Sequence record: NC_048063.1
DNA length: 39,382 nucleotides
Reading direction: 5' to 3' (one strand)
Source: Escherichia phage LL2
Shown one piece after another: positions 2,960 to 39,382 of this stretch; position 1 is the first letter of the stretch; every line of letters starts with the position of its first letter. Position numbers and translations under genes: made by a program. The notes below the pieces were generated by a model. It saw only the letters and a program-made list of their open reading frames with translations, was not told where the DNA came from and made no database searches.

Positions 2960-5614
2960 ATGAACATCATCGAAAACATCGAAAAGAATGACTTCTCCGA
3001 AATCGAACTGGCTGCTATCCCGTTCAACACATTGGCAGACCACTACGGTAGCGCATTGGCTCGTGAACAACTGGCTTTAGAACATGAGTCTTATGAGTTA
3101 GGCGAGCGCCGCTTCCTCAAGATGCTTGAGCGTCAGGCGAAAGCTGGTGAGATTGCAGACAACGCAGCCGCTAAGCCATTACTCGCTACGCTTCTCCCTA
3201 AGTTAACCGCACGCATCGTTGAGTGGCTCGAAGAGTACGCCTCTAAGAAGGGCCGCAAGCCTGTAGCCTACGCACCACTCCAATCACTCAAGCCGGAGGC
3301 GTCCGCGTTTATCACACTCAAGGTTATCCTTGCGTCACTGACCAGCACGAACATGACAACCATTCAGGCCGCTGCTGGTATGCTGGGTAAGGCCATTGAG
3401 GATGAGGCACGTTTCGGGCGTATCCGTGACCTCGAAGCGAAGCACTTCAAGAAGCACGTTGAGGAACAGCTTAACAAGCGCCACGGGCAAGTCTACAAGA
3501 AAGCCTTTATGCAGGTGATAGAGGCCGATATGATTGGTCGAGGTCTGCTTGGTGGCGAGGCATGGTCTAGCTGGGATAAAGAAACTACGATGCACGTAGG
3601 GATTCGCCTGATTGAAATGCTTATCGAGTCCACTGGTCTGGTGGAATTACAGCGACACAACGCAGGTAACGCAGGTTCTGACAATGAGGCACTGCAACTG
3701 GCCCAAGAGTACGTCGATGTGTTAGCGAAGCGTGCAGGAGCACTGGCTGGCATCTCTCCGATGTTCCAACCGTGTGTTGTACCGCCGAAACCTTGGGTAT
3801 CAATCACAGGTGGCGGCTATTGGGCTAACGGTCGCAGACCTTTGGCACTCGTTCGCACTCACTCTAAGAAGGGACTGATGCGCTATGAGGATGTTTACAT
3901 GCCAGAAGTTTACAAGGCGGTCAACATCGCACAGAACACCGCATGGAAAATCAACAAGAAAGTTCTTGCGGTTGTCAATGAGATTGTTAACTGGAAGAAT
4001 TGCCCGGTCGCAGACATTCCATCGCTGGAGCGCCAAGAGTTACCGCCTAAGCCGGACGACATTGACACCAACGAGGCAGCGCTCAAGGAGTGGAAGAAAG
4101 CCGCCGCTGGTATCTACCGCTTGGACAAGGCACGAGTGTCTCGCCGTATCAGCTTAGAGTTCATGCTGGAACAGGCCAACAAGTTTGCAAACAAGAAAGC
4201 AATCTGGTTCCCTTACAACATGGACTGGCGCGGTCGTGTGTACGCTGTGCCAATGTTCAACCCGCAAGGCAACGACATGACGAAAGGCCTGCTGACCCTC
4301 GCTAAAGGCAAGCCAATCGGTGAGGAAGGTTTCTACTGGCTGAAAATCCACGGTGCGAACTGTGCGGGTGTCGATAAGGTTCCTTTCCCTGAGCGCATCG
4401 CGTTCATTGAGAAGCACGTAGACGACATTCTGGCTTGCGCTAAAGACCCAATCAATAACACTTGGTGGGCCGAGCAGGATTCACCTTTCTGCTTCCTCGC
4501 GTTCTGCTTCGAGTATGCAGGCGTTGCGCACCACGGTCTGAGCTACAATTGCTCACTGCCGCTGGCGTTCGACGGGTCTTGCTCTGGTATCCAGCACTTC
4601 TCCGCGATGCTCCGCGATGAGGTAGGTGGTCGTGCGGTTAATCTGCTGCCAAGCGAAACCGTGCAGGACATTTACGGCATCGTTGCACAGAAAGTGAACG
4701 AGATTCTCAAACAGGATGCAATCAACGGAACACCTAACGAGATGATTACCGTGACCGACAAGGACACCGGGGAAATCTCTGAGAAGCTCAAGCTGGGAAC
4801 CTCAACGCTGGCGCAACAGTGGCTGGCATATGGTGTAACCCGTAGCGTAACTAAACGTTCGGTCATGACGCTGGCTTACGGTTCTAAGGAGTTCGGCTTT
4901 CGTCAACAGGTACTGGACGACACCATTCAGCCTGCGATTGACAGCGGTAAGGGCTTGATGTTCACCCAACCTAACCAAGCGGCTGGCTATATGGCTAAGC
5001 TGATTTGGGACGCGGTGAGCGTGACCGTAGTCGCAGCGGTTGAGGCGATGAACTGGCTAAAGTCTGCCGCCAAGCTGCTGGCTGCTGAGGTCAAGGACAA
5101 GAAAACCAAGGATATTCTGCGCCACCGTTGCGCGGTTCACTGGACTACGCCGGACGGCTTCCCGGTCTGGCAGGAATACCGCAAGCCACTCCAGAAGCGT
5201 CTCGATATGATTTTCTTAGGGCAATTCCGTCTGCAACCGACGATTAATACCCTCAAGGATTCAGGCATTGACGCGCACAAGCAGGAGTCTGGCATCGCTC
5301 CTAACTTTGTTCACTCACAGGATGGTAGCCATCTACGCATGACAGTCGTTTATGCTCACGAGAAGTATGGCATTGAGTCCTTTGCGCTCATCCATGACAG
5401 CTTTGGGACTATTCCGGCAGACGCTGGTAAGCTCTTTAAGGCTGTGCGTGAAACGATGGTTCTCACCTACGAGAACAACGATGTGCTGGCAGACTTCTAT
5501 GACCAGTTTGCAGACCAGCTACACGAGACCCAACTGGACAAGATGCCTCCGCTTCCGAAGAAAGGAAATCTGAACCTGCAAGACATTCTCAAGTCTGACT
5601 TTGCCTTTGCATAA
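2960..5614 (+). CDS. 1: Single-subunit DNA-dependent RNA polymerase (gene 1)
   Basis: 884 aa, same length as T3 RNAP; start MNIIENIEKNDFSEIELAAIPFNTLADHYG and end ...HSQDGSHLRMTVVYAHEKYGIESFALIHDSFGT...DFAFA are T7/T3 RNAP hallmarks; promoters in the window are T3-type. Confidence 0.97.
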   Translation: MNIIENIEKNDFSEIELAAIPFNTLADHYGSALAREQLALEHESYELGERRFLKMLERQAKAGEIADNAAAKPLLATLLPKLTARIVEWLEEYASKKGRKPVAYAPLQSLKPEASAFITLKVILASLTSTNMTTIQAAAGMLGKAIEDEARFGRIRDLEAKHFKKHVEEQLNKRHGQVYKKAFMQVIEADMIGRGLLGGEAWSSWDKETTMHVGIRLIEMLIESTGLVELQRHNAGNAGSDNEALQLAQEYVDVLAKRAGALAGISPMFQPCVVPPKPWVSITGGGYWANGRRPLALVRTHSKKGLMRYEDVYMPEVYKAVNIAQNTAWKINKKVLAVVNEIVNWKNCPVADIPSLERQELPPKPDDIDTNEAALKEWKKAAAGIYRLDKARVSRRISLEFMLEQANKFANKKAIWFPYNMDWRGRVYAVPMFNPQGNDMTKGLLTLAKGKPIGEEGFYWLKIHGANCAGVDKVPFPERIAFIEKHVDDILACAKDPINNTWWAEQDSPFCFLAFCFEYAGVAHHGLSYNCSLPLAFDGSCSGIQHFSAMLRDEVGGRAVNLLPSETVQDIYGIVAQKVNEILKQDAINGTPNEMITVTDKDTGEISEKLKLGTSTLAQQWLAYGVTRSVTKRSVMTLAYGSKEFGFRQQVLDDTIQPAIDSGKGLMFTQPNQAAGYMAKLIWDAVSVTVVAAVEAMNWLKSAAKLLAAEVKDKKTKDILRHRCAVHWTTPDGFPVWQEYRKPLQKRLDMIFLGQFRLQPTINTLKDSGIDAHKQESGIAPNFVHSQDGSHLRMTVVYAHEKYGIESFALIHDSFGTIPADAGKLFKAVRETMVLTYENNDVLADFYDQFADQLHETQLDKMPPLPKKGNLNLQDILKSDFAFA

Positions 5615-23572: not shown

Positions 23573-25978
23573 ATGGCTCTCATTAGCCAATCAATCAAAA
23601 ACCTCAAGGGTGGTATCAGCCAACAGCCAGATATTCTCCGGTTCGCTGAACAAGGTAGCGTGCAGATTAACGGTTGGTCTTCTGAGTCCGAGGGTCTCCA
23701 GAAGCGCCCACCAATGATTCACCTTAAGACCCTTGGCCCTGCTGGGTATGTGGGTGCGCAACCTTACGTGCATCTTATCAACCGTGATGAGTTCGAGCAG
23801 TATTTTGTTGTGTTCACTGGTGAAGACATTAAGGTATTCGACCTCGACGGTAAGGAGTACCAAGTACGTGGAGACCGCTCATATGTACGCACAGCTAACC
23901 CACGGGAAGACCTTCGGATGGTAACGGTGGCTGACTACACCTTTGTGACCAACCGTAAGGTGGTTGTGCAGAGTAATGACCACTCGGTCAACCTTCCGGG
24001 CTTTAAAGACCAAGGCGATGCATTAATCAACGTTCGTGGTGGGCAGTATGGGCGTAGACTCTCAATCGAGTTCAACGGGGCTGAGCGTGCTGCTGTACAA
24101 CTACCAGACGGCTCACAACCAGCACACGTCAATGAGGTTGACGGTCAGGTCATCGCTGAGAAGCTGGCGGCTCAGTTGCGGAATAACCTAGGGAACCCCA
24201 ACAATGCACAAGACCCAAATAAGTGGCGGTTCAATGTTGGCCCCGGATTCATCCATATCATTGCACCAAATAATGATAACGTTTGGGGATTACAGACTAA
24301 GGATGGTTACGCAGACCAGCTAATCAACCCTGTAACCCATTACTCTCAGTCGTTCCAGAAGCTGCCTATTAACGCGCCAGACGGGTACATTGTGAAGATT
24401 GTAGGTGACACCTCCAAGACTGCCGACCAGTATTACGTTAGGTTCGACCTCAACCGTAAGGTATGGGTAGAAACAATCGGCTGGAACACAAGGACTCACC
24501 TACACTACCACACGATGCCTTGGGCGCTGGTACGTGCTTCTGACGGGAACTTTGACTTCAAGTACCTTGAGTGGGGTGCTCGTACTGTGGGTGATGATAC
24601 AACTAACCCATACCCATCGTTTACCGGACAGACAATCAACGATATTTTCTTCTTCCGTAACCGTTTAGGCTTCCTTAGTGGGGAGAACATCATCTTGTCT
24701 CGCACCTCGAAATACTTCAACTTCTTCCCGGCCTCCGTGTCAAACTACTCCGACGATGACCCAATCGACGTTGCGGTTAGCCACAACCGGGTGTCAACCT
24801 TGAAGTATGCCGTTCCGTTCTCCGAAGAGTTGCTCCTATGGTCTGACCAAGCGCAGTTCGTTCTGACAGCCTCTGGTATACTTTCGAGTCGCTCCGTAGA
24901 GTTGAACCTTACGACTCAGTTTGATGTACAAGACAGGGCGCGACCACATGGTGTGGGACGTAATGTATACTTTGCGTCACCTCGCGCTTCCTTCACATCC
25001 ATTAACCGATACTATGCGGTACAGGATGTAAGCTCTGTGAAGAACGCAGAGGACATGACGGCTCACGTTCCGAACTACATACCGAATGGCGTATTCAGTA
25101 TATCGGGTACAACCGCTGAGAACTTCGCGGCTATCCTTACTAGCGGAGCACCTAACCGAGTGTATATCTACAAGTTCCTCTATATTGATGAGGAAATCAG
25201 GCAGCAGTCGTGGTCTCATTGGGACTTTGGGGACAACGTTACAGTGTTTGCAGCACAGGTCATAAACTCAACAATGACAGTATTGATGAGCAATGAACAT
25301 GCTGTGTGGATGGGGCGCTTACACTTCACGAAGGACTCCATAGACCTTCCGGGAGAGCCTTACAGATTATACATCGACGCTAAGAGGAAATACACCATCC
25401 CTGCCGGGACGTATAATGATGATACCTACCAGACGCCCATAAGCCTCGCAGCGATTTATGGGATGAACTTCACTAAGGGTAGAGTGTCTGTGGTCTTCCC
25501 TGATGGAAAGATTATAGAGGTAGACCAGCCAATCAACGGTTGGAGCAGTGACCCGGTGTTACGACTTGATGGGAACCAAGAGGGCCAAGTGGTTTACATT
25601 GGGTTCAACATCCCATTCACGTATACGTTCTCGAAGTTCCTCATTAAGAAGACTGCTGAGGACGGCTCGACGGCTACCGAGGATATTGGTCGCTTACAGC
25701 TTCGGCGTGCGTGGGTAAACTATGAGGACTCTGGAGCGTTCACCATCCGCGTGAACAACCTGTCCCGTGAGTTCATCTACACAATGGCTGGTGCTCGCTT
25801 GGGTTCTGACAATCTGCGTGTTGGCAGGTCGAACATTGGCACAGGGCAGTACCGCTTCCCGGTTGTTGGAAACGCTCAGACGAACATAGTAACTATCGAG
25901 TCAGACGCATCAACCCCACTGAACATCATTGGGTGCGGCTGGGAGGGTAACTACCTTCGTCGTTCTTCTGGCATTTAA
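23573..25978 (+). CDS. 12: Tail tubular protein B (gene 12)
   Basis: 801 aa versus 794 in T7; MALISQSIKNLKGGISQQPDILR... matches T7 gp12 N-terminus. Confidence 0.93.
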   Translation: MALISQSIKNLKGGISQQPDILRFAEQGSVQINGWSSESEGLQKRPPMIHLKTLGPAGYVGAQPYVHLINRDEFEQYFVVFTGEDIKVFDLDGKEYQVRGDRSYVRTANPREDLRMVTVADYTFVTNRKVVVQSNDHSVNLPGFKDQGDALINVRGGQYGRRLSIEFNGAERAAVQLPDGSQPAHVNEVDGQVIAEKLAAQLRNNLGNPNNAQDPNKWRFNVGPGFIHIIAPNNDNVWGLQTKDGYADQLINPVTHYSQSFQKLPINAPDGYIVKIVGDTSKTADQYYVRFDLNRKVWVETIGWNTRTHLHYHTMPWALVRASDGNFDFKYLEWGARTVGDDTTNPYPSFTGQTINDIFFFRNRLGFLSGENIILSRTSKYFNFFPASVSNYSDDDPIDVAVSHNRVSTLKYAVPFSEELLLWSDQAQFVLTASGILSSRSVELNLTTQFDVQDRARPHGVGRNVYFASPRASFTSINRYYAVQDVSSVKNAEDMTAHVPNYIPNGVFSISGTTAENFAAILTSGAPNRVYIYKFLYIDEEIRQQSWSHWDFGDNVTVFAAQVINSTMTVLMSNEHAVWMGRLHFTKDSIDLPGEPYRLYIDAKRKYTIPAGTYNDDTYQTPISLAAIYGMNFTKGRVSVVFPDGKIIEVDQPINGWSSDPVLRLDGNQEGQVVYIGFNIPFTYTFSKFLIKKTAEDGSTATEDIGRLQLRRAWVNYEDSGAFTIRVNNLSREFIYTMAGARLGSDNLRVGRSNIGTGQYRFPVVGNAQTNIVTIESDASTPLNIIGCGWEGNYLRRSSGI

Positions 25979-25998
25979 CTTAAAGTCTCCCTGTGGTG

Positions 25999-26021
25999 AA
26001 TTAACCCTCACTAAAGGGAGA
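25999..26021 (+). promoter_or_regulatory. Phage RNAP promoter (phi13-like), perfect consensus
   Basis: AATTAACCCTCACTAAAGGGAGA. Confidence 0.85.
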
Positions 26022-26050
26022 CACTAATAGATACGAGGGGTTAAAGCATT

Positions 26051-26461
26051 ATGTACATTACAAAGTGTTTACAAATCCATGCCGACAACTTTCAGCCGTC
26101 CATAGAGGACATTCTGGAAGCTGAGGCACTAGGTGTTGAACCAAAGGTAATTCCTGATGAGAACACTGTGGCAATGCTTAGCGATAACGCTGTGTTGGCA
26201 ATTGGTGGCAATCAGGGAGACCGAGTGTGGTTCCTTACCTCTAAGTACGTCCCACTGTTTACCTTGAAGGAGCGCTTAGAGTTTCGTAGACTTATCATTG
26301 AATATCGTGATATGATGCTGAGCCAGTACGAGTCCATTTGGAATTTCGTTTGGGTAGGCAATAAGTCACACATTCGTTTCCTAAAGACCATAGGCGCGGT
26401 ATTCCATAATGAGTTTACCGCTGATGGTCAATTCCAATTATTCACTATCAGTAGGAGGTAA
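26051..26461 (+). CDS. 13: Internal virion protein A (gene 13)
   Basis: 136 aa; position and size as T7 gp13. Confidence 0.75.
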   Translation: MYITKCLQIHADNFQPSIEDILEAEALGVEPKVIPDENTVAMLSDNAVLAIGGNQGDRVWFLTSKYVPLFTLKERLEFRRLIIEYRDMMLSQYESIWNFVWVGNKSHIRFLKTIGAVFHNEFTADGQFQLFTISRR

Positions 26462-26463
26462 CT

Positions 26464-27057
26464 ATGTGCTGGATGGCAGCGATTCCTATTGCCATGATGG
26501 GTGCCCAAGCTCTAAGTAGCCAGAACAGTGCTGACAAGGCGCGCGTGGCACAGACAGAAGCTGGACGCCGACAGGCAATTGAGATGGTCAAAGAGATGAA
26601 TATCCAGAATGCCAACGCCTCGCTTGAACAACGGGACGCCCTTGAAGCTGCATCCTCTGAGTTGACTTCACGTAGCATGAAGAAGGTACAGGCTATGGGA
26701 ACCATCCGTGCAGCGATTGGTGAGGGTATGCTCGAAGGTGAATCCATGAAGCGCATCAAGCGTATCGAAGAAGGTAACTACATTCGGGAGGCAAATAGTG
26801 TCACCGAGAATTACCGCCGAGACTACGCGAGTATCTTTGCTCAACAGTTGGGACGCACTCAGTCAACAGCAAGTCAAGTTGATGCAATGTACAAGAGCGA
26901 GGCAAAAGGTAAGTCTGGTCTGATGCGTGTACTAGACCCTCTGTCCATTATGGGTCAGGAAGCTGCAAGTCAATATGCGGCTGGTGGATTTGACAAGAAA
27001 GGTGGAAACCAAGCAGCACCTATCAGTGCCGCCAAAGGAACCAAGACCGGGAGGTAA
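26464..27057 (+). CDS. 14: Internal virion (core) protein B (gene 14)
   Basis: 197 aa versus 196 in T7; AGGAGG RBS. Confidence 0.8.
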   Translation: MCWMAAIPIAMMGAQALSSQNSADKARVAQTEAGRRQAIEMVKEMNIQNANASLEQRDALEAASSELTSRSMKKVQAMGTIRAAIGEGMLEGESMKRIKRIEEGNYIREANSVTENYRRDYASIFAQQLGRTQSTASQVDAMYKSEAKGKSGLMRVLDPLSIMGQEAASQYAAGGFDKKGGNQAAPISAAKGTKTGR

Positions 27058-27059
27058 TA

Positions 27060-29303
27060 ATGGCTAGTAAACTAAATAGTGTTTTAGGCAACATGGCGAC
27101 TCCCGGTATGGAACGACTCCGGGGCGTCAAAGGTATGGACTATCGGGCAGCTACCATTCAGGCTGAACAACCAAGAGCGAGTCTTCTGGACTCCATTAGT
27201 CGATTCGCTAAGGCTGGTGCCGATATGTACATGGCGAAAGATGAACGTGATAAGCAACGAGCCGATGAGCGCTCCAACGAGATTATACGTAAGCTGACCC
27301 CTGAGCAGCGCCGACAGGCTATCCAGAATGGTACACTGCTGTATCAGGATGACCCATACGCAATGCAAGCCTTGAAGTTCAAGACAGGGCGTAACGCTGC
27401 GTTCCTAGTTGATGATGAGGTTCAACAGGCCATCAAAGAGGGTCGCTTCCGTACTCGTGAAGAGATGGAGCAGTATCGTCACTCACGCCTACAGGAGCAC
27501 TCGAAGTCGTTCGCTGAGCAGTTCGGCATCAATGAGATGGACGAGGAATACCAGAAGGGTTTCAATGCGAATATCACCGAGCGTAACATTGCTCTGTATG
27601 GGGCACATGATGCCTTCCTTAGCGACCAAGCGCAGAAGGGTGCAATCCTGAACTCGAAGGTTGAACTCAATGGTGTCCTGTCTGACCCTGACCTACTGTC
27701 TCGTCCTGAGTCCGGTGAGTTCTTCCAGAACTACATTGACAACTCCTTGGTGACAGGGATGACTGACAATCAGGCTCAACAGGTTATCTCTTCGTCCCTG
27801 AATGACGTGCTACAGCGTCCGGGAGGTGCAGCCTTCTTGCAGAACATTGAGAACCGCAAGGTAACTCTAAATGGCGCTACGACTACCTATCGTGAACTGA
27901 TGGGTGATGAACAGTGGCAGGCAATGATGATTAAGGCACAGCACACTCAGTTCCAGAACAACGCGAAGTTAACCGAGAAGTTCCGACTTGATATTAACTC
28001 AGCGCTTAACCAAGCGGACACTGGTAAAGGCTGGGAGACTCTTCAAGGTATCAAGGCCGAACTCGATAAGATTCAGCCGGGTGAAGAGATGACTCCTGAG
28101 CGCGAGTGGCTGATTTCCGCACAGGAACATATGCGCACACGCTTCAAGCAGGAACAGGCTGAGACAGCCAAGCTGATGGACAAGCAACAGAAGACCCTGA
28201 ATAAATCTTTGGTCATCGACAAGCAGTTCCAGAAGCGCCTCAACGGTGAATACGTCTCGACCAATTATAAGGACATGCCGACCAACGAGAACACTGGTGA
28301 GTTCACACATAGCGATATGGTCAACTACGCGAACCAGAAGTTAGCGGAAATAGAAGCGATGGACTTAACACCTGAACAGAAAGACAAACTGAAATTGGAC
28401 TACCTACGGGCAGACTCCAAGGAGGGTGCTTTCCGTGCAGCGTTTGGTGAGATGATTACTGATGCTGGAAACGAATGGCAGGCTGCGGTGATTAACGGTA
28501 AGATGCCTGATAGCACACCAGCGATGGACAACCTTCGTCGCATCCGTAACACTGACCCTGACCTGATTGCCTCTCTGTATCCTGACAAGGCCGAGTTGTT
28601 CCTGACGATGGACATGTTGGATAACCAAGGTATCGACACGCAGGTTCTTATCGACGCTGATAAGGCCCGAGCACAGAAGACCAAGGAGATGCAGTTTGAG
28701 GATGACCGAGCGTGGGCAGCTATGATGAACGATTCAACGAATCCTCAAATCAAGTACATGCCTTCGAGTGTCCAAGGTTACGCGCGGAAGATTTATGATT
28801 CCGTGAAGTACCGGACAGGGAACCCTGACATGGCAACCGAACAGGTCGCAAAGTTCCTCTCTGATTCAACGACTACGTTCTCCAGTAGTGATGTTGATGG
28901 CGATACCTATGGTGTCCTGCCGAATAACATCCTGACTGTTTCGGATGACCCTAAGTCGTGGGAGCAAGGTAAGAACATTCTGGACGAAGCCATTAAGGGA
29001 ATCACAGCGGCGAACCCTTGGATTACCAACAAGCAACTGACGGTGTACCAGCAAGGCGATTCAATATACCTGATGGACACAACCGGACAGGTTCGCATTC
29101 GGTATGACCAAGAGTTGCTCCAGCGTGAGTACCAGCGTACCGCACAGATGCAAGCTGAGGCAGCACGAGAGAAAGCCCTCAAAGAGGCCAACAAGCGTGC
29201 CCCAATCAGCCGTGTATCACAGGCGCGTGAAGAAGCGCGTAAACGTGTCCAAGAGAAACGGAAGAAGACTCCGAAGTACATCTATGGACGTAAAGAAGAC
29301 TAA
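27060..29303 (+). CDS. 15: Internal virion (core) protein C (gene 15)
   Basis: 747 aa, identical length to T7 gp15. Confidence 0.88.
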   Translation: MASKLNSVLGNMATPGMERLRGVKGMDYRAATIQAEQPRASLLDSISRFAKAGADMYMAKDERDKQRADERSNEIIRKLTPEQRRQAIQNGTLLYQDDPYAMQALKFKTGRNAAFLVDDEVQQAIKEGRFRTREEMEQYRHSRLQEHSKSFAEQFGINEMDEEYQKGFNANITERNIALYGAHDAFLSDQAQKGAILNSKVELNGVLSDPDLLSRPESGEFFQNYIDNSLVTGMTDNQAQQVISSSLNDVLQRPGGAAFLQNIENRKVTLNGATTTYRELMGDEQWQAMMIKAQHTQFQNNAKLTEKFRLDINSALNQADTGKGWETLQGIKAELDKIQPGEEMTPEREWLISAQEHMRTRFKQEQAETAKLMDKQQKTLNKSLVIDKQFQKRLNGEYVSTNYKDMPTNENTGEFTHSDMVNYANQKLAEIEAMDLTPEQKDKLKLDYLRADSKEGAFRAAFGEMITDAGNEWQAAVINGKMPDSTPAMDNLRRIRNTDPDLIASLYPDKAELFLTMDMLDNQGIDTQVLIDADKARAQKTKEMQFEDDRAWAAMMNDSTNPQIKYMPSSVQGYARKIYDSVKYRTGNPDMATEQVAKFLSDSTTTFSSSDVDGDTYGVLPNNILTVSDDPKSWEQGKNILDEAIKGITAANPWITNKQLTVYQQGDSIYLMDTTGQVRIRYDQELLQREYQRTAQMQAEAAREKALKEANKRAPISRVSQAREEARKRVQEKRKKTPKYIYGRKED

Positions 29304-29321
29304 CAGTGATAAGGAGGCTCC

Positions 29322-32300
29322 ATGAGCTACGATAAGAACAAACCTAGCGAGTTCGATGGGTTATTTCAAAAAGCGGCAGACAAACATGGGGTCTCCTATG
29401 ACCTGCTTCGTAAATTAGCATTCAATGAGTCCAGTTTCAATCCAAAGGCCAAATCACCAACTGGCCCGAAGGGTCTCATGCAGTTCACCAAGGGTACAGC
29501 CACTGCGCTGGGACTCAAGGTCACTGATGCAGACGATGATGACCGTTACAACCCTGAGTTGGCTGTGGATGCAGCCGCTCGTCACCTGAGTGACCTCATT
29601 CGTAAATATGATGGGGATGAGCTTAAGGCAGCCTTAGCGTACAACCAAGGCGAGGGCAGAAATGGTGCCCCTCAGATGCAGGCCTACGACAAAGGTGATT
29701 GGGCCTCAATCTCTGAGGAAGGTCGTAACTATATGCGCAACCTGATGGACGTAGCTAACAGTCCTCGCAAGGGGGACTTGGAGGCGTTCGGCGGTATCAC
29801 CCCAAAGGCTAAGGGCATTCCATCGGGGGATGCATTTGCTGGAATCGGGAAGAAGCAGACGGTAGGAACCGACCTGCCGGAGTCAACTGGATTCAAAGTG
29901 GAGGGTAAAGAGCAGAAAGCACCTAACGTGCCTTATGCTAAGGACTTTTGGGAAAAGACTGGAACAACACTGGACGAGTTTAACTCACGCTCTACCTTCT
30001 TCGGAATTGGAGATGCAACAAGTGCTGAGCTTCACAACTCTGTACTTGGAGTTGCTTTCCGTGCAGCCCGTAGCGACGATGGTTTTGATTTGTTCAAGGA
30101 CACCATTACGCCTACCCGTTGGAATAGCCACACTTGGACTCCAGAAGAGCTAGAGCGAATCCGTAAGGAGGTGAAGAACCCCGCGTACATCAACGTAGTC
30201 ACTGGAGGCTCTCCTGAGAATCTGGACGCCCTCATTAAGATGGCGAATGACAACTACGAGATGGACGCACGGTCTGCCGATGCTGGTGTTGGTGCCAAAC
30301 TTACTGCTGGTATCGTCGGTGCTGGTGTAGACCCGCTGAGTTACGTGCCGCTAGTAGGCGTAGCCGGGAAGGGTCTCAAGGTGGTTAACAAGGCTTTCAT
30401 TGTGGGTACTCAAAGTGCTGGCCTCGCTGTTGCCTCTGAGGGTCTCCGTACATCAATCGCTGGTGGAGAAGCCCACTATGCTGATGCTGCTTTAGGTGGT
30501 CTGATGTTCGGTGCCGGGATGAGCGCAATCAGTGACGCTATCGCCGCTGGTATTCGCCGTTCCCGTGGTACTGAGGTTGTTAATGACTTCGCTCCTATGG
30601 CACACCGCTTGGAAGCCCGTGAGACCGCTCTGAACTCTGGTGGGGAAGACCTGACCCGTATGCCTAGCGAGAACCGTGTGTTCGACCGTGAGCACGCTGG
30701 CGTTGAGTATTCACCTCTGGAGACCGAGCCGGGTGCCGTTGTGTTGCCTCAAGGTCAAATCCTTAGCGACACCAACCCGATGAACCCTCAGACTCTTAGC
30801 GAGTTCGAGGCGGTCAACCCTGAGCGTGCCTCTCGTGGTATCTCTTTGGGTGGTTTCACTGAGATTGGCTTGAAGACTCTCCGCTCTGAGAACCCGACTG
30901 TTCGCTCCATTGCGAGTGACCTTGTGCGTTCTCCGACAGGGATGGAATCAGGCTCTAATGGTAAGTTCGGTGCGACTGCTTCTGACATTAAGGAGCGGCT
31001 CCACGCGAACAATCAGCGCACCTACAATCAGCTTTATGATGCTGTGCGTACTGCAATGAAAGACCCTGAGTTCTCCACGGGTGGGGCCACAATGAGCCGT
31101 AAGGAAATCCGACAGGAAATCTACAAGCGTGCAGCCTTGGCGATTGAGCGGCCTGAGTTCCAAGCAAACCTGACAAAGGGTGAGCGGAACGTGATGAACA
31201 TCCTCAAGCAGCACTTTGACCTCAAACGTGAAATCATGGAGAACCCGTCAATCTTTGGCAACACCAAGGCGGTAAGTATCTTCCCCGGCTCACGCCACAA
31301 GGGAACCTACGTGCCAAACGTGTACGACCGCGCTATCAAGATTGAGATGGTTAAACGCTACGGTAATGATGGCTTGCAGCGAGCAATCGCGGAGTCATGG
31401 TTGACGTCTTATCGCGCACGTCCAGAAGTCAAAGCGAGGGTCGATGAGTACCTGATGGAACTCAACGGTCTCAAATCCGTGCAGGAAGTTACGCCGGAGA
31501 TGGTGCAGAAGCACGCGATGGATAAGGCGTATGGTATTTCACACGCTGACCAGTTCTCTGCCTCCTCTGTCATTGATGATAACATTGAGGGTCTGGTGGG
31601 AATCGAGAACAACAACTTCTTGGAAGCCCGTAACATGTTCGACAGTGACATGGCGGTGACTCTCCCTGATGGTAACACGTTCTCTGTGAATGACCTGCGT
31701 ACCTATGACATGGCTGAAATTCTCCCTGCATACGACCGCCGAGTTGATGGTGACGTTGCAATCATGGGTGGTTCCGGTAAGACTACCAAAGACCTGAAAG
31801 ATGAAATCATGGCGCTGGATAAGCAGTCAGAGGGTAACGGCACACTGAAAGGTGAAGTGGAAGCCCTCAAGGACACCGTGAAGATTCTTACTGGTCGTGC
31901 TCGTAGGAACCCGGAAGGCGCTTGGGGTACAGCCCTGCGCTCCGTCAATGACCTCACGTTCTTTGCTAAGAACGCCTATATGGGCGCACAGAACGTTACT
32001 GAAATCGCTGGTATGCTGGCGAAAGGTAACGTCTCTGCGATAACTCACGGAATACCCATGATTAACGATTGGGTCAACCGTGGTAAACCGCTTCGTGCCT
32101 CTGAGATTAAGGAGCTACACGGGATGGTGTTCGGTAAGGAACTAGACCAACTAATCCGTCCGGGACGTGAAGACCACGTGCGACGACTCCGGGAGTCTAC
32201 GGACACCAGCGCTGCGGTTGCCAATGTGGTCGGTACGATTCGTTTCGGTACTCAAGAGTTGGCTGCACGCTCTCCTTGGACAATGCTCCTAAACGGAACA

Positions 32301-33284
32301 TCAAACTACATTCTTGATGCTGCCCGTCAGGGTGTGCTTGGGGATGTGGCTGGAGCGGCCCTTGCTGGGAAAGCCTCTAAGTTCGGTAAGGCAAACTACC
32401 TTAAGTCTGCCTCTATCAGCCCTGAGCAGTGGAATGGAATCAAGCAGTTGTTCAGAGACCATGCGACTCGTGGAGAAGATGGTAAGTTCACCATTCGTGA
32501 CAAACAGGCTTTCGCTAACGACCCACGTTCAATGGACTTGTGGCGACTGGCCGACAAGGTGGCGGATGAGACTATACTGCGCCCTCACAAGGTTTCCTCA
32601 CAGGACTCCAAAGCGTTCGGTGCAGGGGTGAAGATGGTGATGCAGTTTAAGAACTTCGTCATCAAGTCACTTAACTCCCGGTTCGTCCGTAGCTTCTACG
32701 AGGCAACGAAGAACAACCGTGCGCTAGACCAAGCGTTGACTCACATCATCTCTTTGGGTCTAGCTGGTGGTTACTACGTTGGGCAGGCGCACCTTAAGGC
32801 TGCAAGTCTACAGGAGCACAAACGTAAGGAGTACCTTAAGAACGCCCTTGACCCTAAGATGATTGCTCATGCATCAATCTCTCGTAGTTCACACTTAGGT
32901 TCACCATTGAGTATCTACGACATGTTCGCTGGGATGGTTGGTAGTGATACCTATAAGTACACCCGCTCTACGGTACTCCCTAAAGAGTCCGAGAAGCGTG
33001 ACCCTACCAAGGCAGTGACAGGTAGACAGGTAGCTTCAACTATCGCAGGTGCAATTGGTGAGCAGGTTCCGGGTTTAGGTTTTGTTGGCTCTGTGGGTGC
33101 AACAGCTATTAACGCCGCTTCCCTGCTGTCTTCTCCGAACAAGGCTACCGCTCTGGAGTTCCGTACAGGCCTCTTCAACACCTCTCGTGAGTTGATTCCT
33201 AATGACCCGCTATCGCAGCAACTCATTATGAAAATCTACGAGGCCAATGGTATCCGCATAAAGGAGATACCGAAGAAACAATAA
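29322..33284 (+). CDS. 16: Internal virion protein D with N-terminal lytic transglycosylase domain (gene 16)
   Basis: 1320 aa versus 1318 in T7; N-terminal LAFNESSFNPKAKSPTGPKGLMQFTKGTA is a soluble lytic transglycosylase motif. Confidence 0.93.
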   Translation: MSYDKNKPSEFDGLFQKAADKHGVSYDLLRKLAFNESSFNPKAKSPTGPKGLMQFTKGTATALGLKVTDADDDDRYNPELAVDAAARHLSDLIRKYDGDELKAALAYNQGEGRNGAPQMQAYDKGDWASISEEGRNYMRNLMDVANSPRKGDLEAFGGITPKAKGIPSGDAFAGIGKKQTVGTDLPESTGFKVEGKEQKAPNVPYAKDFWEKTGTTLDEFNSRSTFFGIGDATSAELHNSVLGVAFRAARSDDGFDLFKDTITPTRWNSHTWTPEELERIRKEVKNPAYINVVTGGSPENLDALIKMANDNYEMDARSADAGVGAKLTAGIVGAGVDPLSYVPLVGVAGKGLKVVNKAFIVGTQSAGLAVASEGLRTSIAGGEAHYADAALGGLMFGAGMSAISDAIAAGIRRSRGTEVVNDFAPMAHRLEARETALNSGGEDLTRMPSENRVFDREHAGVEYSPLETEPGAVVLPQGQILSDTNPMNPQTLSEFEAVNPERASRGISLGGFTEIGLKTLRSENPTVRSIASDLVRSPTGMESGSNGKFGATASDIKERLHANNQRTYNQLYDAVRTAMKDPEFSTGGATMSRKEIRQEIYKRAALAIERPEFQANLTKGERNVMNILKQHFDLKREIMENPSIFGNTKAVSIFPGSRHKGTYVPNVYDRAIKIEMVKRYGNDGLQRAIAESWLTSYRARPEVKARVDEYLMELNGLKSVQEVTPEMVQKHAMDKAYGISHADQFSASSVIDDNIEGLVGIENNNFLEARNMFDSDMAVTLPDGNTFSVNDLRTYDMAEILPAYDRRVDGDVAIMGGSGKTTKDLKDEIMALDKQSEGNGTLKGEVEALKDTVKILTGRARRNPEGAWGTALRSVNDLTFFAKNAYMGAQNVTEIAGMLAKGNVSAITHGIPMINDWVNRGKPLRASEIKELHGMVFGKELDQLIRPGREDHVRRLRESTDTSAAVANVVGTIRFGTQELAARSPWTMLLNGTSNYILDAARQGVLGDVAGAALAGKASKFGKANYLKSASISPEQWNGIKQLFRDHATRGEDGKFTIRDKQAFANDPRSMDLWRLADKVADETILRPHKVSSQDSKAFGAGVKMVMQFKNFVIKSLNSRFVRSFYEATKNNRALDQALTHIISLGLAGGYYVGQAHLKAASLQEHKRKEYLKNALDPKMIAHASISRSSHLGSPLSIYDMFAGMVGSDTYKYTRSTVLPKESEKRDPTKAVTGRQVASTIAGAIGEQVPGLGFVGSVGATAINAASLLSSPNKATALEFRTGLFNTSRELIPNDPLSQQLIMKIYEANGIRIKEIPKKQ

Positions 33285-33302
33285 ACCCTCACTAAAGGGA
33301 GA
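33280..33302 (+). promoter_or_regulatory. Phage RNAP promoter (phi17-like) AATAAACCCTCACTAAAGGGAGA
   Basis: Consensus match; overlaps gene 16 stop. Confidence 0.75.
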
Positions 33303-33355
33303 GAGGTCACATTCTGGCCTCTTCTCTCCTAATGCTAATTTACAAAGGAGGTCAC

Positions 33356-35098
33356 ATGGCTACAACTATTAAGACCGTGATGACTTACCCGCTGGATGGT
33401 TCAACTACGGACTTTAATATTCCGTTCGAGTATCTGGCGCGTAAGTTCGTCCGAGTGACCCTTATCGGTGTTGACCGAAAGGAACTCACCTTGAATCAAG
33501 ACTATCGTTTTGCAACTAAGACCACAATCTCCACAACGAGAGCATTGGGGCCAGCGGACGGTTATAACCTTATCGAGATTCGGCGGTACACCTCAGCGAC
33601 TGAACGTCTGGTTGACTTTACGGATGGCTCAATCCTCCGTGCGTATGACCTGAACATCTCGCAGGTGCAGACCCTCCACGTTGCTGAGGAAGCGCGTGAC
33701 CTTACCGCTGATACGATTGGCGTTAACAACGATGGTGACTTGGATGCTCGTGGTCGTCGTATCGTGAACGTTGCGGACGCTAAAGACCCCGGTGACGCAA
33801 TCAACTTAGGTCAAGTCCAGAAGTGGAACGACTCTGCGTTGAACTCTGCGAACCGCGCACGGGCTGAGGCCGACCGTGCAACTGTGCGTGCTTCAGAGGC
33901 TGCTACCTCTGCGGGTAACTCTGCGAGTTCTGCAAGCCTGTCCCGTGATTGGGCTATCAAGGAATCTCCGGTGGAAGGAACCTTTAAGTCTTCCCGGTCG
34001 TATGCCATTGACTCTATGGCGTACCGGGATGCGTCCAAGAGTTCTGCCGATGCTAGTGCTGCAAGTGCTGGTGCCGCTAAGACCTCTGAGATTAACGCGA
34101 ATAACTCAAAAATCGCTGCGAAGACCTCTGAGACCAACGCGAAGACCTCTGAGAACAACGCTAAGGCTTCCGAGGAACGAGCCATTGAGGAAGCAAATAA
34201 GCTGGAGAACATGAATGATTTGGTTGGTGCAATTGATAAGGTAGATGGGGCAAATGTGTACTGGAAAGGAAATATTAACGCTAATGGGAGGCTTTTCCTG
34301 ACCACAAACGGTTTTGACTGTGGACAGTATCAACAGTTCTTTGGTGGTGTTACTTATCGTTACTCTGTCATGGAGTGGGGCGATAAGGACGGATGGCATT
34401 TGTATTCCGAGAGGAAAACCGAAGGCGGGAGGCCAACGCTCAATGTAAATGGTGATGTGAGCGTCGGTTTTGACATTCGGACGGGTGCTAATCAATTTGC
34501 TAATCACATGTTTGTACACGACAGGGTACAATACTGGCCCGGTGCTGGCATGTTTGTTAACCAGTTGTCTGTCCCAGAAGCGCCATTTATCAAACAAGGG
34601 AGATATGAGGCCCCATCTGGTAACAGCTTATACGCCCCTATTGTTAAGGGAATCATACGGACGGCAGGTCACGGGTATGACACAGCGCTGTCCTTTGGTA
34701 CTCTAACACAGGGTAACGGGTCGTTTGCTTCTGCGGGTATTCATGCGATTGGGGATAACGGCACTTCTGGTTTCTGGGAATTTAACCCTAACAATAGGTC
34801 CTTCCGTAGTCAAGGTGATGGGTTCTTTGGCAACACTACTGTCTATCAGGATGGTAACATCGGTGGCCCTACGTGGGGTGGCGACCTAGCGCACTGGCTC
34901 AGAGTAAATACGGTTAACCACATTGCTATGGGCGGAGTCAACCAGTCAATAGTGTGGAATAGCTACGGTGTTTCTGATGGTGGCGGCAAGGTAGTAACTG
35001 GCGTTGTAAACTCTAACGCTGATGGTGCGATAGACTATTGTCAGTGGCGTGTTATGCAATACGTTCGTAACGACGGTCAATGCTTTAATATTTACTGA
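33356..35098 (+). CDS. 17: Tail fibre protein (gene 17), conserved N-terminal tail-attachment domain, coiled-coil shaft, divergent distal domain
   Basis: N-terminus MATTIKTVMTYPLDGSTTDFNIPFEYLARKFV...LVDFTDGSILRAYDLN matches T7 gp17; start at ATG 33356 with AAGGAGG RBS; central KVDGANVYWKGNINANGRLFLTTNGFDCGQYQQFFGG is also T7-like. Confidence 0.92.
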   Translation: MATTIKTVMTYPLDGSTTDFNIPFEYLARKFVRVTLIGVDRKELTLNQDYRFATKTTISTTRALGPADGYNLIEIRRYTSATERLVDFTDGSILRAYDLNISQVQTLHVAEEARDLTADTIGVNNDGDLDARGRRIVNVADAKDPGDAINLGQVQKWNDSALNSANRARAEADRATVRASEAATSAGNSASSASLSRDWAIKESPVEGTFKSSRSYAIDSMAYRDASKSSADASAASAGAAKTSEINANNSKIAAKTSETNAKTSENNAKASEERAIEEANKLENMNDLVGAIDKVDGANVYWKGNINANGRLFLTTNGFDCGQYQQFFGGVTYRYSVMEWGDKDGWHLYSERKTEGGRPTLNVNGDVSVGFDIRTGANQFANHMFVHDRVQYWPGAGMFVNQLSVPEAPFIKQGRYEAPSGNSLYAPIVKGIIRTAGHGYDTALSFGTLTQGNGSFASAGIHAIGDNGTSGFWEFNPNNRSFRSQGDGFFGNTTVYQDGNIGGPTWGGDLAHWLRVNTVNHIAMGGVNQSIVWNSYGVSDGGGKVVTGVVNSNADGAIDYCQWRVMQYVRNDGQCFNIY

Positions 35099-35110
35099 TA
35101 GGAGGACGAT

Positions 35111-35635
35111 ATGGGAACTTTACGTCACTATAAGAATTTCGTAAATTACACTCCAGAACGCACCAAAGAGAATGCAGACCTTCTAGACCACGGAGTCGGT
35201 TTCTCAAAGGATGAGAACGGGAATGACTGGTATGAACTTCGCAAGACATTCCGTGAGGATACATGGAAACTTGTCTACGCCAAAGATGGTTCAGTTATTC
35301 AATGTGAACAGGATGTTCAGGAGTTAGCCGTTCAGGGATCTGCTGGGGTGGTTGAGCTTGAGGAAATCCCTGCTGAGTATTCTCGGTACAATATGGTTCA
35401 GTGGTGGTGGGACGGCGATAAGCTAACTTGGTATCCTCGGTACTTTGAGCACAAGAAGGCCCAGCTAATCTCTATGGCCTCCAAGAAGATTGAGCAGTAT
35501 GCTGACTTTATAGCTCTTGGGGAGGAGGGATTAGAGGGTATACTAAATGCGTGGCGAGCCTATCGCCTTGCTGTATATAAAGTAGACCTGAGTGTTCTAC
35601 CTTTCTATGACTGGCCCGAGCAACCAGAAACCTAA
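35111..35635 (+). CDS. Tail-fibre assembly chaperone, lambda Tfa-like
   Basis: 174 aa; C-terminus LNAWRAYRLAVYKVDLSVLPFYDWPEQPET follows the conserved Tfa C-terminal pattern (AW..YR..L..VD.S....WP..P); AGGAGG RBS; sits directly after the fibre gene. Confidence 0.7.
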   Translation: MGTLRHYKNFVNYTPERTKENADLLDHGVGFSKDENGNDWYELRKTFREDTWKLVYAKDGSVIQCEQDVQELAVQGSAGVVELEEIPAEYSRYNMVQWWWDGDKLTWYPRYFEHKKAQLISMASKKIEQYADFIALGEEGLEGILNAWRAYRLAVYKVDLSVLPFYDWPEQPET

Positions 35636-35694
35636 TGACAACCTCAAGGAAAGACGTGTAGTCCACGGATGGACTCTTACAAGGAGGACACTAC

Positions 35695-35898
35695 ATGCTG
35701 TCTTTAGATTTTAACAACGAGTTAGTCAAGGCTGCACCTATTGTTGGTACAGGTGTGGCTGATGGCGCTGCGAGGCTTTTCTTCGGGCTGAGTCTTAATG
35801 AGTGGTTCTATGTTGCCGCTATCGCCTACACAGTGGTTCAGATTGGTGCCAAGGTAGTCGATAAGATGATTGACTGGAAACGTGCAAACAAGGAGTAA
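35695..35898 (+). CDS. 17.5: Holin, class II (gene 17.5)
   Basis: 67 aa; MLSLDFNNELVKAAPIVGTGVADGAARLFFGLSLNEWFYVAAIAYTVVQIGAKVVDKMIDWKRANKE is nearly identical to T7 gp17.5. Confidence 0.9.
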   Translation: MLSLDFNNELVKAAPIVGTGVADGAARLFFGLSLNEWFYVAAIAYTVVQIGAKVVDKMIDWKRANKE

Positions 35899-35901
35899 CC
35901 T

Positions 35902-36168
35902 ATGAGTGACAAGACTTTAATCAAGCTGCTGGAGATGCTAGACACTGAGATGGCACAGCGTATGCTTGCTGACCTCCAGAGCGAGGAACGCCGAACTCCG
36001 CAGCTTTACAACGCAATCGGCAAACTGTTAGACCGCCATAAGTTCCAAATCAGTAAGCTGACCCCGGATGAGAACATCCTTGGCGGTCTCGCGGCAGGTC
36101 TGGAAGACTACAACAAAGTGGTCGGCCCTAATGGTCTGACTGACGATGAGACTATCACGCTACAGTAA
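35902..36168 (+). CDS. 18: Terminase small subunit (gene 18)
   Basis: 88 aa versus 89 in T7; position before Rz/terminase large. Confidence 0.8.
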   Translation: MSDKTLIKLLEMLDTEMAQRMLADLQSEERRTPQLYNAIGKLLDRHKFQISKLTPDENILGGLAAGLEDYNKVVGPNGLTDDETITLQ

Positions 36169-36175
36169 GTGACAT

Positions 36176-36215
36176 ACTCAAGGTTCTCCACTCGGGGGAG
36201 CCTTTATGGATGTTA
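36176..36215 (+). promoter_or_regulatory. RNase III-site hairpin repeat (R18.5-like)
   Basis: TACTCAAGGTTCTCCACTCGGGGGAGCCTTTATGGATG. Confidence 0.45.
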
Positions 36216-36258
36216 TTTGGTGCATCTATGTGAAATCTGAAAATTGATGGGAGGTGTT

Positions 36259-36711
36259 ATGCTAAAACTTTTACGCAGCGCACTCCCTTGGGTACTCGCC
36301 GGGACACTCTTTATGGGTGGCTGGCACTTAGGGTCAACCCATGAGAGAGCAAACTGGAAGGAGGTAATCCAAAATGAGTACATTGCGAAAACAAAAGCAA
36401 CCGCAGCAACTCAGGCAGAGGTCAGTCGGGTATCCCGTGAGTACCAAGAAGAGATTGCAGCCATTGAAGGCAGCACTGATAGGATGCTTAATGACCTGCG
36501 TAGTAATAATAAGCGGCTGTCAGTCCGCATCAAGACCCTTACCGGACTACCAGAAGATAACGGTAGATGCGAGTTTAATGGTCGAGCCGAACTACACGAG
36601 TCAGATGCTAAGCATATTATCGGAATAACCCAAGCTGCTGATGCTCACGTAAGAGCGCTCCAGCGTACTATTAAGGAGATGCAGAATGAGCGACACCCAA
36701 GCAAACCGTAA
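36259..36711 (+). CDS. 18.5: Rz-like inner-membrane spanin (gene 18.5)
   Basis: N-terminal transmembrane segment [18 protein letters not shown], coiled-coil periplasmic part; GGGAGG RBS before ATG 36259; resembles T7 gp18.5. Confidence 0.8.
36374..36628 (+). CDS. 18.7: Rz1-like outer-membrane lipoprotein spanin (gene 18.7), embedded in +1 frame of 18.5
   Basis: Lipobox-like [11 protein letters not shown]; AAGGAGG RBS; fully nested in 18.5 as in T7. Confidence 0.65.
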   Translation: MSTLRKQKQPQQLRQRSVGYPVSTKKRLQPLKAALIGCLMTCVVIISGCQSASRPLPDYQKITVDASLMVEPNYTSQMLSILSE

Positions 36712-38449
36712 TGCGCTAATCATCGCGCAGCTTAAGGGTGACTTCGTGGCCTTCCTGTTCGTATTGTGGAAGGCTTTGGCTCTCCCGCCGCCGACTAAGT
36801 GTCAGATTGATATGGCCCGGTGTCTGGCTAACGGAGACAACAAGAAGTTTATCCTACAGGCTTTCCGTGGTATCGGTAAGTCATTCATCACCTGTGCGTT
36901 CGTTGTGTGGACGTTATGGCGTGACCCTCAGTTGAAGATACTAATTGTCTCTGCATCCAAAGAACGTGCGGACGCTAACTCCATCTTCATCAAGAACATC
37001 ATTGACCTGCTGCCATTCTTGGCTGAGCTAAAGCCTCGCCCCGGTCAGCGTGACTCTGTGATTAGTTTCGATGTTGGCCCTGCCAAGCCTGACCACTCTC
37101 CGTCTGTGAAGTCGGTGGGTATCACTGGTCAGTTGACTGGTAGTCGTGCTGATATCATCATAGCGGATGACGTTGAGATTCCGTCTAACTCCGCAACTCA
37201 AGGTGCCCGTGAGAAGCTGTGGACTCTGGTGCAGGAATTTGCTGCGCTTCTGAAACCACTGCCGACTTCTCGCGTTATCTACCTTGGCACGCCTCAAACC
37301 GAAATGACCTTGTACAAGGAACTCGAAGATAACCGTGGGTACACCACAATCATCTGGCCTGCGCTCTATCCGCGTAGCCGTGAGGAAGACTTGTATTATG
37401 GCGACCGTCTGGCCCCGATGCTCCGCGAAGAGTTCAACGATGGGTTCGAGATGCTCCAAGGTCAACCGACTGACCCCGTGCGCTTCGATATGGAAGACCT
37501 GCGTGAGCGTGAGTTGGAATACGGTAAGGCTGGCTTCACTTTGCAGTTCATGCTCAACCCGAACCTGAGTGATGCCGAGAAGTACCCCTTACGCCTCCGT
37601 GACGCTATCGTGTGCGGTCTGGACTTCGAGAAAGCCCCAATGCATTACCAGTGGCTTCCGAACCGTCAGAATCGCAATGAAGAGCTACCTAACGTTGGCC
37701 TTAAGGGTGATGATATTCATAGCTATCATTCGTGCAGTCAGAACACTGGACAGTACCAGCAACGCATCCTCGTGATTGACCCTAGTGGTCGAGGTAAGGA
37801 TGAGACTGGTTACGCAGTGTTGTTCACCCTGAATGGCTACATCTATCTGATGGAAGCTGGCGGGTTCCGCGATGGTTATTCCGATAAGACCCTTGAGTCC
37901 CTCGCTAAGAAAGCGAAGCAGTGGAAGGTTCAGACAGTGGTCTTCGAGAGTAACTTCGGGGATGGCATGTTTGGTAAGGTATTCAGCCCTGTGCTCCTGA
38001 AACACCATGCAGCGCAACTTGAAGAGATTCGTGCTCGCGGTATGAAGGAACTACGCATTTGTGATACGCTGGAACCTGTACTCTCTACGCACCGCCTTGT
38101 GATTCGTGACGAGGTGATTCGTGAGGACTACCAGACTGCCCGTGACGCTGATGGCAAGCATGACGTTCGCTATTCGCTGTTCTACCAGTTGACCCGTATG
38201 GCCCGTGAGAAGGGCGCTGTGGCCCACGATGACCGACTTGATGCGTTAGCATTGGGTGTGGAGTTCTTACGCTCTACGATGGAACTGGACGCTGTGAAGG
38301 TGGAGGCTGAGGTGCTTGAGGCATTCTTAGAGGAACACATGGAGCACCCAATCCATTCGGCTGGTCACGTAGTTACCGCTATGGTTGACGGGATGGAACT
38401 CTATTGGGAGGATGACGATGCGAATAGCAACAGGTTCATTGACTGGTAG
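36686..38449 (+). CDS. 19: Terminase large subunit (gene 19)
   Basis: 587 aa versus 586 in T7; ATPase and nuclease motifs; overlaps 18.5 end. Confidence 0.96.
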
Positions 38450-38529
38450 TTATGCATATTGAGTGCATAAGGAAGCATTGAGACCACGGATGGTCACTTT
38501 AAGAAACTCCTTAAGAATCAATGAGTTTG

Positions 38530-38552
38530 AATTAACCCTCACTAAAGGGAGA
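38530..38552 (+). promoter_or_regulatory. Phage RNAP promoter phiOR-like, perfect consensus
   Basis: AATTAACCCTCACTAAAGGGAGA after gene 19. Confidence 0.8.
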
Positions 38553-38634
38553 GAGGGGGGCTTAAAGCTATTATATAGGTTAGTCATTCAGGTTATGCAA
38601 TGACCCTTTATGCACTTTAAGTCTACCTCTGTGA

Positions 38635-38658
38635 TTGGTGATATTATCATTGTATAAT
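38635..38658 (+). promoter_or_regulatory. Possible host-type promoter with extended -10 (TGTATAAT)
   Basis: Perfect TATAAT at 38653..38658 preceded by TG; -35 poor (TTGGTG with 12 nt spacing). Confidence 0.25.
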
Positions 38659-38694
38659 CACCCTACCTTAGAGCAACTGAAAGGAGGTGGCTCA

Positions 38695-38844
38695 ATGTTA
38701 CGCTTGCTGATTGCCCTGCTGCGTCATAGAGTCACTTGGCGATTTCTTCTGGTACTTACTGCTACCCTTGGGTACGCAGGTCTTACTGACCACCTCGGTC
38801 AACTGGAAGTGGCCTTTTGCTCTATACTCTCTTGTGGGGATTAA
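38695..38844 (+). CDS. 19.5: Gene 19.5-like small membrane protein, 49 aa
   Basis: MLRLLIALLRHRVTWRFLLVLTATLGYAGLT... closely resembles T7 gp19.5 (MFRLLLNLLRHRVTYRFLVVLCAALGYASLT...); AGGAGG RBS. Confidence 0.7.
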   Translation: MLRLLIALLRHRVTWRFLLVLTATLGYAGLTDHLGQLEVAFCSILSCGD

Positions 38845-38925
38845 ATTATTGTTGATGACCGACAAGCGGCTCTGAGGGATTCGTAGGTATAGTTTCACTA
38901 CACCAACTCATCCCTGTAGAGTCAA

Positions 38926-39382
38926 CCCTAAAGGTTATACCTAAAGATGCCCTGTAGTTCGTAATGGTCTTACAGGGTCTTCTGGTGTCTCCTAGCTATC
39001 CCTTCGGGATGCGCCTATGGTCTCACCTATGGTGTGGCCTTACCTAAAGTGGTTGCCTAAAGAGACCCTTTAAGAATTTACCACAAAAATCTGAATGGGT
39101 ATCTCACAGTTCAAGAACCCAAAGTACCCCCATAGACCTCCTAAAGCCACCTAAAGCCAGCCCTACCCCTAGGGTTTAACCTTCGGTTAACCTTGGGTAT
39201 CTCCTCAAGTGGCCTATAGGATAGCCTAAAGTGTGGCGTAAAGTCAATACCTAAAGTGATGGGTGACTATTGGAGACTTAAAGAGTGTCCTAGTGTACCA
39301 GTTCGATAGTACATCTCTATGTGTCCCTATCTGTTAGCCTCATAAAGTAAACCCTAAAGCCTCCACCTAAAGACCAGACCTA
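38926..39382. repeat. Array of CCTAAAG heptamer-containing short repeats flanking the terminal repeat; continues at 1..45
   Basis: More than ten CCTAAAG occurrences, including the 26-mer AAGCCTCCACCTAAAGACCAGACCTA at 39357..39382, again at 1..26 and partially at 27..43. Confidence 0.6.
39102..39338. repeat. Terminal repeat unit (single copy in this rotated assembly); physical genome left end at about 39102
   Basis: TCTCACAGTTCAAGAACCCAAAGTACCCCCATAG... parallels the T7 left terminus TCTCACAGTGTACGGACCTAAAGTTCCCCCATAG...; GTGTCCCTATCTGTTAGCC parallels the end of the T7 repeat; boundaries inferred by analogy. Confidence 0.5.

Follow-up and report, generated by a model that had tools for sequence, protein, structure and literature searches.

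The gene inserted between the tail fibre and holin genes of Escherichia phage LL2 most probably encodes a Mu U-type tail fibre assembly protein (Tfa) that would act as an assembly chaperone for a cognate fibre tip, both being carried as a Sv-U-like cassette of ~1.4 kb on a T3/T7-type gp17 shaft. We put the probability of this reading, which is drawn from sequence comparisons, at about 0.88. In line with it, the 174-aa product aligns along nearly its whole length with the chaperone of phage Mu, the distal part of the fibre is homologous to the variable fibre part of Mu-type phages, tip and chaperone occur in exactly the same phage records, and the gene is under purifying selection.

Genomic context of tfa in phage LL2

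The stretch of DNA analysed here (39,382 nt, record NC_048063.1; hereafter the window) comprises an entire T3/phiYeO3-12-like podophage genome, which is assigned to the genus Teetrevirus by its nearest relatives. Over the first 25 kb, its identity to phiYeO3-12 and a number of Klebsiella, Pantoea and Serratia phages is about 95%. Window positions 1-26 and 39357-39382 are identical, and it looks as if the genome had been assembled with a short overlap or its terminal repeats had been cut short; in T3-type genomes, direct terminal repeats are usually ~230 bp long.

The tfa gene, equivalent to gene 17.2 of Kluyvera phage Kvp1, is located at 35111..35635 on the plus strand. Its ATG is separated by a gap of 12 nt from the stop codon of gene 17 (TGA, 35096-35098) and is preceded, at a distance of 5 nt, by the Shine-Dalgarno sequence AGGAGG (35100..35105, +), while the next ORF downstream is the holin gene 17.5 (35695..35898, +). 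Hence, as is typical of the family, tfa is co-oriented with the fibre gene and lies directly downstream of it, with no promoter in between. The first-pass annotation of this DNA had placed an ORF with a strong ribosome binding site between tail fibre and holin genes and had taken the canonical T7 order to be 17 followed by 17.5. Both statements were borne out, since in T7, T3 and phiYeO3-12 gene 17 leads directly into 17.5 with no tfa in the slot. Further downstream, two nested ORFs (36244-36711 and 36374-36628) are arranged like the T7 18.5/18.7 (Rz/Rz1-like) spanin pair, an arrangement usual in this phage group.

With regard to transcription, the window harbors 16 T3-type promoter cores, compared to 0.08 expected by chance. 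One of them belongs to phi17, a T3-type late promoter (AATAAACCCTCACTAAAGGGAGA; 33283..33305, +) upstream of gene 17, and the core scan of the whole window returned none between 33286 and 38536. Since phi17 is the sole phage promoter before 38536, genes 17, tfa, 17.5, 18, 18.5 and 19 belong to one late transcription unit. A scan of positions 33200-36300 for sigma-70 promoters and terminators retrieved sites no commoner than in shuffled sequence. The tight coupling of tfa to gene 17, with its 12-nt gap, strong ribosome binding site and no promoter in between, fits stoichiometric co-production of both proteins.

The 174-aa protein belongs to the Tfa family and is of the Mu U type

Profile searches, which had been suggested as a check on the family, assigned the 174-aa protein to it with both collections that gave a match: PF02413 (Caudo_TAP), for which the gathering cutoff is 22.1, scored 40.5 bits (E 3.6e-10) with positions 3-131 of its 131 aligned, and phrog_136, described as 'tail fiber assembly protein', matched over the full length with an E-value of 9e-39. 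NCBIfam profiles matched neither Tfa nor gp17 and were uninformative. The sole solved structure matched was that of phage Mu TfaU (PDB 5YVQ chain B), whose residues 2-175 align with residues 5-173 of the LL2 protein (E 7.6e-10). Furthermore, the two U-type ORFs next to the Sv-type fibre ORF of the Yersinia Muvirus Tongde align full-length with it (E 1e-14 and 3e-13), and together with the alignment to 5YVQ_B these matches point to the two-domain architecture of Mu U-type proteins. Identity to Mu U itself is modest, at 26-32%.

The C-terminal end of the protein (...LNAWRAYRLAVYKVDLSVLPFYDWPEQPET in the ORF translation) had been likened to the pattern of lambda Tfa-family chaperones. Family and motif both stood: the C-terminal family motif W-x-x-Y-R/S-x-x-V/L-x-x-V-D ... 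W-P-x-x-P is present as AWRAYRLAVYKVDLSVLPFYDWPEQPE, where it aligns with Mu U and lambda Tfa, and the version common to LL2 Tfa and the C-terminal half of lambda Tfa reads AW..YR..(V/L)..VD....WP..P. The closeness to lambda, however, needed refinement. Although lambda Tfa scores high against PF02413 (147.6 bits), it aligns only with residues 89-172 of the LL2 protein (34% identity), and full-length similarity to orf-194 that includes the N-terminal part, as expected of a lambda Tfa sensu stricto, was not found. On these alignments, the 174-aa protein is a member of the Tfa family, for which 'Mu U-type' is a more exact label than 'lambda-like'.

Within the protein, the N-terminal domain (~aa 1-90) is the putative fibre-binding part, and the C-terminal part contains the family-wide conserved helical motif. 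The fold is one that we infer from sequence; the homologue search for the Tfa alignment returned 4 proteins, and the AlphaFold2 model built from the 5-sequence alignment is of low confidence (pLDDT 53). A look-up of public assemblies gave no match to the exact LL2 Tfa sequence, the nearest on record being 97.1% identical.

The gene 17 tail fibre carries a Mu-type distal region

Gene 17 (33356..35098, +) encodes a tail fibre of 580 aa with an N-terminal tail-attachment domain (PF03906, Phage_T7_tail; aa 1-155, E 8.7e-59). The true start is the ATG at 33356 (MATTIKTV), which follows AAGGAGG and matches the N-termini of the T7 and T3 fibres; on the same grounds, the first in-frame ATG at 33332 (MLIYKGGH...) was rejected. 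In Leclercia phage 10164-302, gene 17 is annotated in a longer form that begins at the upstream ATG. LL2 gp17 is 57% identical to T7 gp17 over aa 1-368, and homology is gone after residue ~368, near nt 34460. A T7-like N-terminal and central gene 17 with a different distal end, as the first-pass annotation had described it, is therefore confirmed; its boundary at 34330 fell in the right area but was only approximate, given that nucleotide homology to the nearest backbone relatives ends at 34233 and protein homology to T7 gp17 at ~34460. Inside the central domain, a patch covering ~aa 279-350 (34190..34405, +) shows 86.6% nucleotide identity to T7 by blastn, compared to ~75% in the N-terminal part, and the mosaic common to LL2, Kvp1, SPLA4 and ESh2 starts at 34175-34190. 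This T7-close patch at 34190-34405 suggests a separate recombination event in the central domain of the fibre.

The distal receptor-binding region (aa 364-580; 34445..35095, +) is not T7-like and instead shows homology to Muvirus Sv-type proteins. In particular, aa 364-568 are 35% identical (E 4e-29) to an Sv-type ORF of Tongde (2252-3040) that adjoins a Hin/Gin invertase and belongs to the Muvirus invertible segment, and residues 519-572 match the Mu fibre S/S' (PDB 8JU3; E 5.5e-5). Both matches relate the C-terminal region to the Mu S/S' tip, and the distal ~215 residues of gp17 are homologous to the variable fibre part of Mu-type invertible segments. The fibre ends in a C-terminal module of ~86 aa (34838..35095, +) with the pattern DGNIGG..WGG..WL..NTVNHIAMGGVN ... 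CQWRVMQYVRNxGQxFNIY, in which 37 columns are invariant (alignment A2) and which represents the putative chaperone docking region. At gp17 residue 575 (35077-35079), LL2 reads GQCFNIY where most orthologues read GQRFNIY, and the cysteine is otherwise found only in ESh2.

The cassette arrived by recombination and keeps tip and chaperone together

Comparison with close relatives delimited the cassette on both sides. The Klebsiella Teetrevirus ViciousJeremy is 97.7% identical to LL2 up to 34233, with homology back at 35681, and phiYeO3-12 shows 89.5% identity as far as 33937, with homology back at 35659. At the right junction (35659..35898, +), the backbone thus resumes at 35659 (phiYeO3-12) or 35681 (Klebsiella Teetrevirus) and continues into the holin gene 17.5. 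Across the late region (25001-39382), alignments with Klebsiella relatives extend over 90% of the sequence as two pieces with 96-97% identity, the only large gap being the ~1.4-kb cassette itself (about 34234..35658). In Bas103, PGX1 and Yanou, homology is restricted to the part from 34850-34907 on, which comprises tfa and the final ~86 codons of gene 17. These junctions clearly indicate arrival by recombination, and by homology the insert is a Sv-U-like module joined to a shaft of the T7 type. GC content is slightly lower across the cassette (0.43-0.48) than in the flanks (~0.50-0.55); the values are inside the range of the window, and the dip was not taken as a sign of foreign origin.

The distribution of both parts was monitored by tblastn among 50,697 phage records. 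The Tfa query retrieved 13 T7-like records with at least 80% identity, and the fibre tip query retrieved the same 13. They correspond to 11 phages in the genera Teetrevirus, Teseptimavirus and Berlinvirus, in which the gene order is 17-tfa-17.5 throughout. No phage with the fibre tip but without tfa was present among the 50,697 phage records, that is, the relatives with the tip and without the gene that would have spoken against a chaperone were looked for and not encountered. This co-occurrence count is based on GenBank phage records alone. In IMG/VR viral contigs, a single-sequence scan for the tip gave no match, and a scan with alignment A2 recovered Kvp1 itself only. In one of the orthologues, that of ESh2 (an UNVERIFIED record with almost no annotation; L009, 2601-3206), the frame passes the usual stop and gives 201 aa, and this read-through is probably a sequencing or assembly error.

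A comparison of the individual fibre and chaperone segments with LL2 further narrowed down the shared unit. The Tfa N-terminal domain (aa 1-90) is 96-100% identical in amino acid sequence in seven phages, and the last 90 aa of gp17 are 60-94% identical, whereas gp17 aa 351-490 of Bas103, PGX1 and Yanou retain only 20-25% identity. Because the N-terminal domain stays so constant while aa 351-490 do not, the co-inherited unit is the C-terminal module of the fibre plus the chaperone.

Finally, tfa is under purifying selection. Its dN/dS was 0.05-0.10 against six orthologues (dS 0.12-0.67); versus Kvp1 and SPLA4 dS was saturated, and ESh10 differs too little to be informative. A ratio in this range marks tfa as clearly functional.

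Proposed mechanism and alternative explanations

In Mu and Pam3, Tfa attaches to the distal fibre end through its variable N-terminal domain (PMC9608196, PMC10579305). By analogy with both systems, three LL2 Tfa molecules would dock with their N-terminal domains on three nascent gp17 chains, at the C-terminal module, while the conserved helices in the C-terminal part of Tfa would gather the three chaperones and hence the three fibre chains. The gp17 chains would then begin to trimerise in register at their C-termini and continue toward the shaft. The tip of T7 itself would form without need of such a helper. Tfa of Mu stays on the fibre tip and may contact LPS (PMC9608196, PMC10579305), and LL2 Tfa may likewise stay on the tip after assembly. 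Since the cassette replaces the receptor-binding end of the fibre, it probably sets the surface glycan that is recognised. For the Tfa of Bas103, which is 93% identical to that of LL2, a Mu-like hexameric complex with the fibre has been predicted (PMC11990801). Our literature search found no experiments on LL2 Tfa or any T7-like orthologue, nor virion proteomics for gp17.2, on which the Kvp1 virion gel paper is silent.

A bolder extension of this mechanism, which we hold only tentatively, is that the last ~86 residues of gp17 and Tfa constitute a portable assembly adaptor with which T7-like phages can mount unrelated receptor-binding domains on one shaft; Tfa might in addition be retained on the mature podovirus fibre, either as a transient cap or as its seventh structural protein. 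The adaptor is suggested by the 96-100% constancy of the Tfa N-terminal domain alongside the wholesale swap of gp17 aa 351-490 (20-25% identity).

Other roles for Tfa have to be weighed against assembly. It could be mainly a component of the virion, either as a permanent tip subunit or adhesin that touches the receptor, like T2-type gp38, or as a transient cap that masks the tip until after lysis. There are precedents for both forms, as a contact with LPS has been suggested for Mu TfaU, which stays bound to the tip, and the chaperones of Alteromonas phages have been proposed as caps (PMC9608196, PMC10579305). However, the dN of Tfa is ~0.03 compared to 0.23-0.31 for the last 86 aa of the fibre (and only 20-25% identity in aa 351-490), across different receptor-binding domains, and an adhesin diversified by its hosts would not be expected to be so conserved; a place in the virion would moreover be compatible with a chaperone role too. 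We therefore regard a mainly structural Tfa as improbable.

Far less probable still, to the point of being nearly negligible, is that tfa came along with the tip during recombination as a dispensable passenger and no longer has a function in a podovirus. Its junctions do reveal a cassette acquired by recombination, and some fibres fold without their cognate chaperone, as reported for fibres of Alteromonas phage A5 that have one (PMC10579305). Nevertheless, the ORF is intact in 11 out of 11 phages from three genera, its dN/dS remains at 0.05-0.10 even at dS 0.4-0.7, its strong ribosome binding site and tight spacing are conserved, and all phages found with the tip have kept tfa. Taken against these alternatives, the assembly chaperone remains the preferred reading for LL2 Tfa.

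Implications for host range

The cassette is plausibly the likeliest host-range determinant of LL2, as it is the sole large non-homologous block in the late region versus the Klebsiella-infecting relatives. The relation between tip and isolation host is not one-to-one, because near-identical tips (90-96% amino acid identity to that of LL2) occur in phages isolated on three genera, namely Shigella, Leclercia and Serratia. Bas103, which combines a near-identical Tfa with a different receptor-binding domain, needs the O16 O-antigen.

In practical terms, the cassette may serve as a marker when the host range of T3/T7-like phages is to be engineered or predicted. Fibres with this tip would require transplantation of the downstream chaperone too, and a recombination unit may consist of no more than tfa and the final ~86 codons of gene 17. 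The cassette also provides an example of fibre-module exchange between Mu-type myoviruses and podoviruses, which is conceptually not new. The arrangement of tip plus chaperone is likewise not new, being already annotated and published for close relatives. The record that accompanies the 2008 paper labels the product of Kvp1 gene 17.2 a tail fibre assembly protein and likens it to P2 gpG-like proteins, and the paper itself lists 17-17.2 as a region in which Kvp1 differs from phage Berlin. Most orthologues are annotated 'tail fiber assembly protein' in RefSeq and GenBank, a 2025 publication describes the 93%-identical protein of Bas103 as a Mu-like Tfa (PMC11990801), and Tfa genes have been reported in other Autographiviridae too.

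Comparison with known systems

The closest counterparts of LL2 Tfa are the orthologues of Kvp1 (gene 17.2), Leclercia phage 10164-302, Shigella phages ESh10, ESh6 and ESh2, Serratia phage Seera, Salmonella phage SPLA4, Cedecea phage Yanou and Escherichia phages PGX1 and EmilieLinder (Bas103). They share with LL2 the same slot, 80-97% amino acid identity and the same conserved fibre C-terminus, and their sub-groups differ in the receptor-binding part of the fibre.

In the same slot of a near-identical backbone, many Klebsiella Teetreviruses (e.g. ViciousJeremy, L003, 2246-2656) carry a different gene of 136 aa, paired with another fibre tip. Its product matches phrog_136 (E 1.8e-12; profile positions 3-133 of 178) and shows weak N-terminal similarity to LL2 Tfa, but it is devoid of the conserved C-terminal motif and has no Caudo_TAP match, so that it may be a C-terminally truncated Tfa serving that other tip. 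The gene is annotated variously as hypothetical, as tail fiber assembly protein and as ssDNA-binding protein, the last of which we consider a misannotation in view of the phrog_136 match.

The LL2 fibre has its N-terminal attachment domain, its coiled-coil shaft and its central domain in common with T7 and T3 gp17, whereas T7, T3 and phiYeO3-12 possess distal domains of their own and no separate chaperone gene. Lambda Tfa (orf-194)/Stf and P2 G/H resemble LL2 in Pfam family, C-terminal motif and position downstream of the fibre gene; the N-terminal fibre-binding domain of lambda Tfa, however, is unrelated to that of LL2 at the sequence level. As in LL2, the variable part of the fibre is followed by the chaperone in the Muvirus G-segment and in Mu, whose TfaU/U' and S/S' (5YVQ, 8JU3) are homologous to the LL2 chaperone and distal fibre at an identity of only 26-35%. 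Unlike Mu, LL2 is a podovirus in which this pair is mounted on a T7-type shaft, with neither an invertible segment nor an invertase nor an alternative S'/U' pair.
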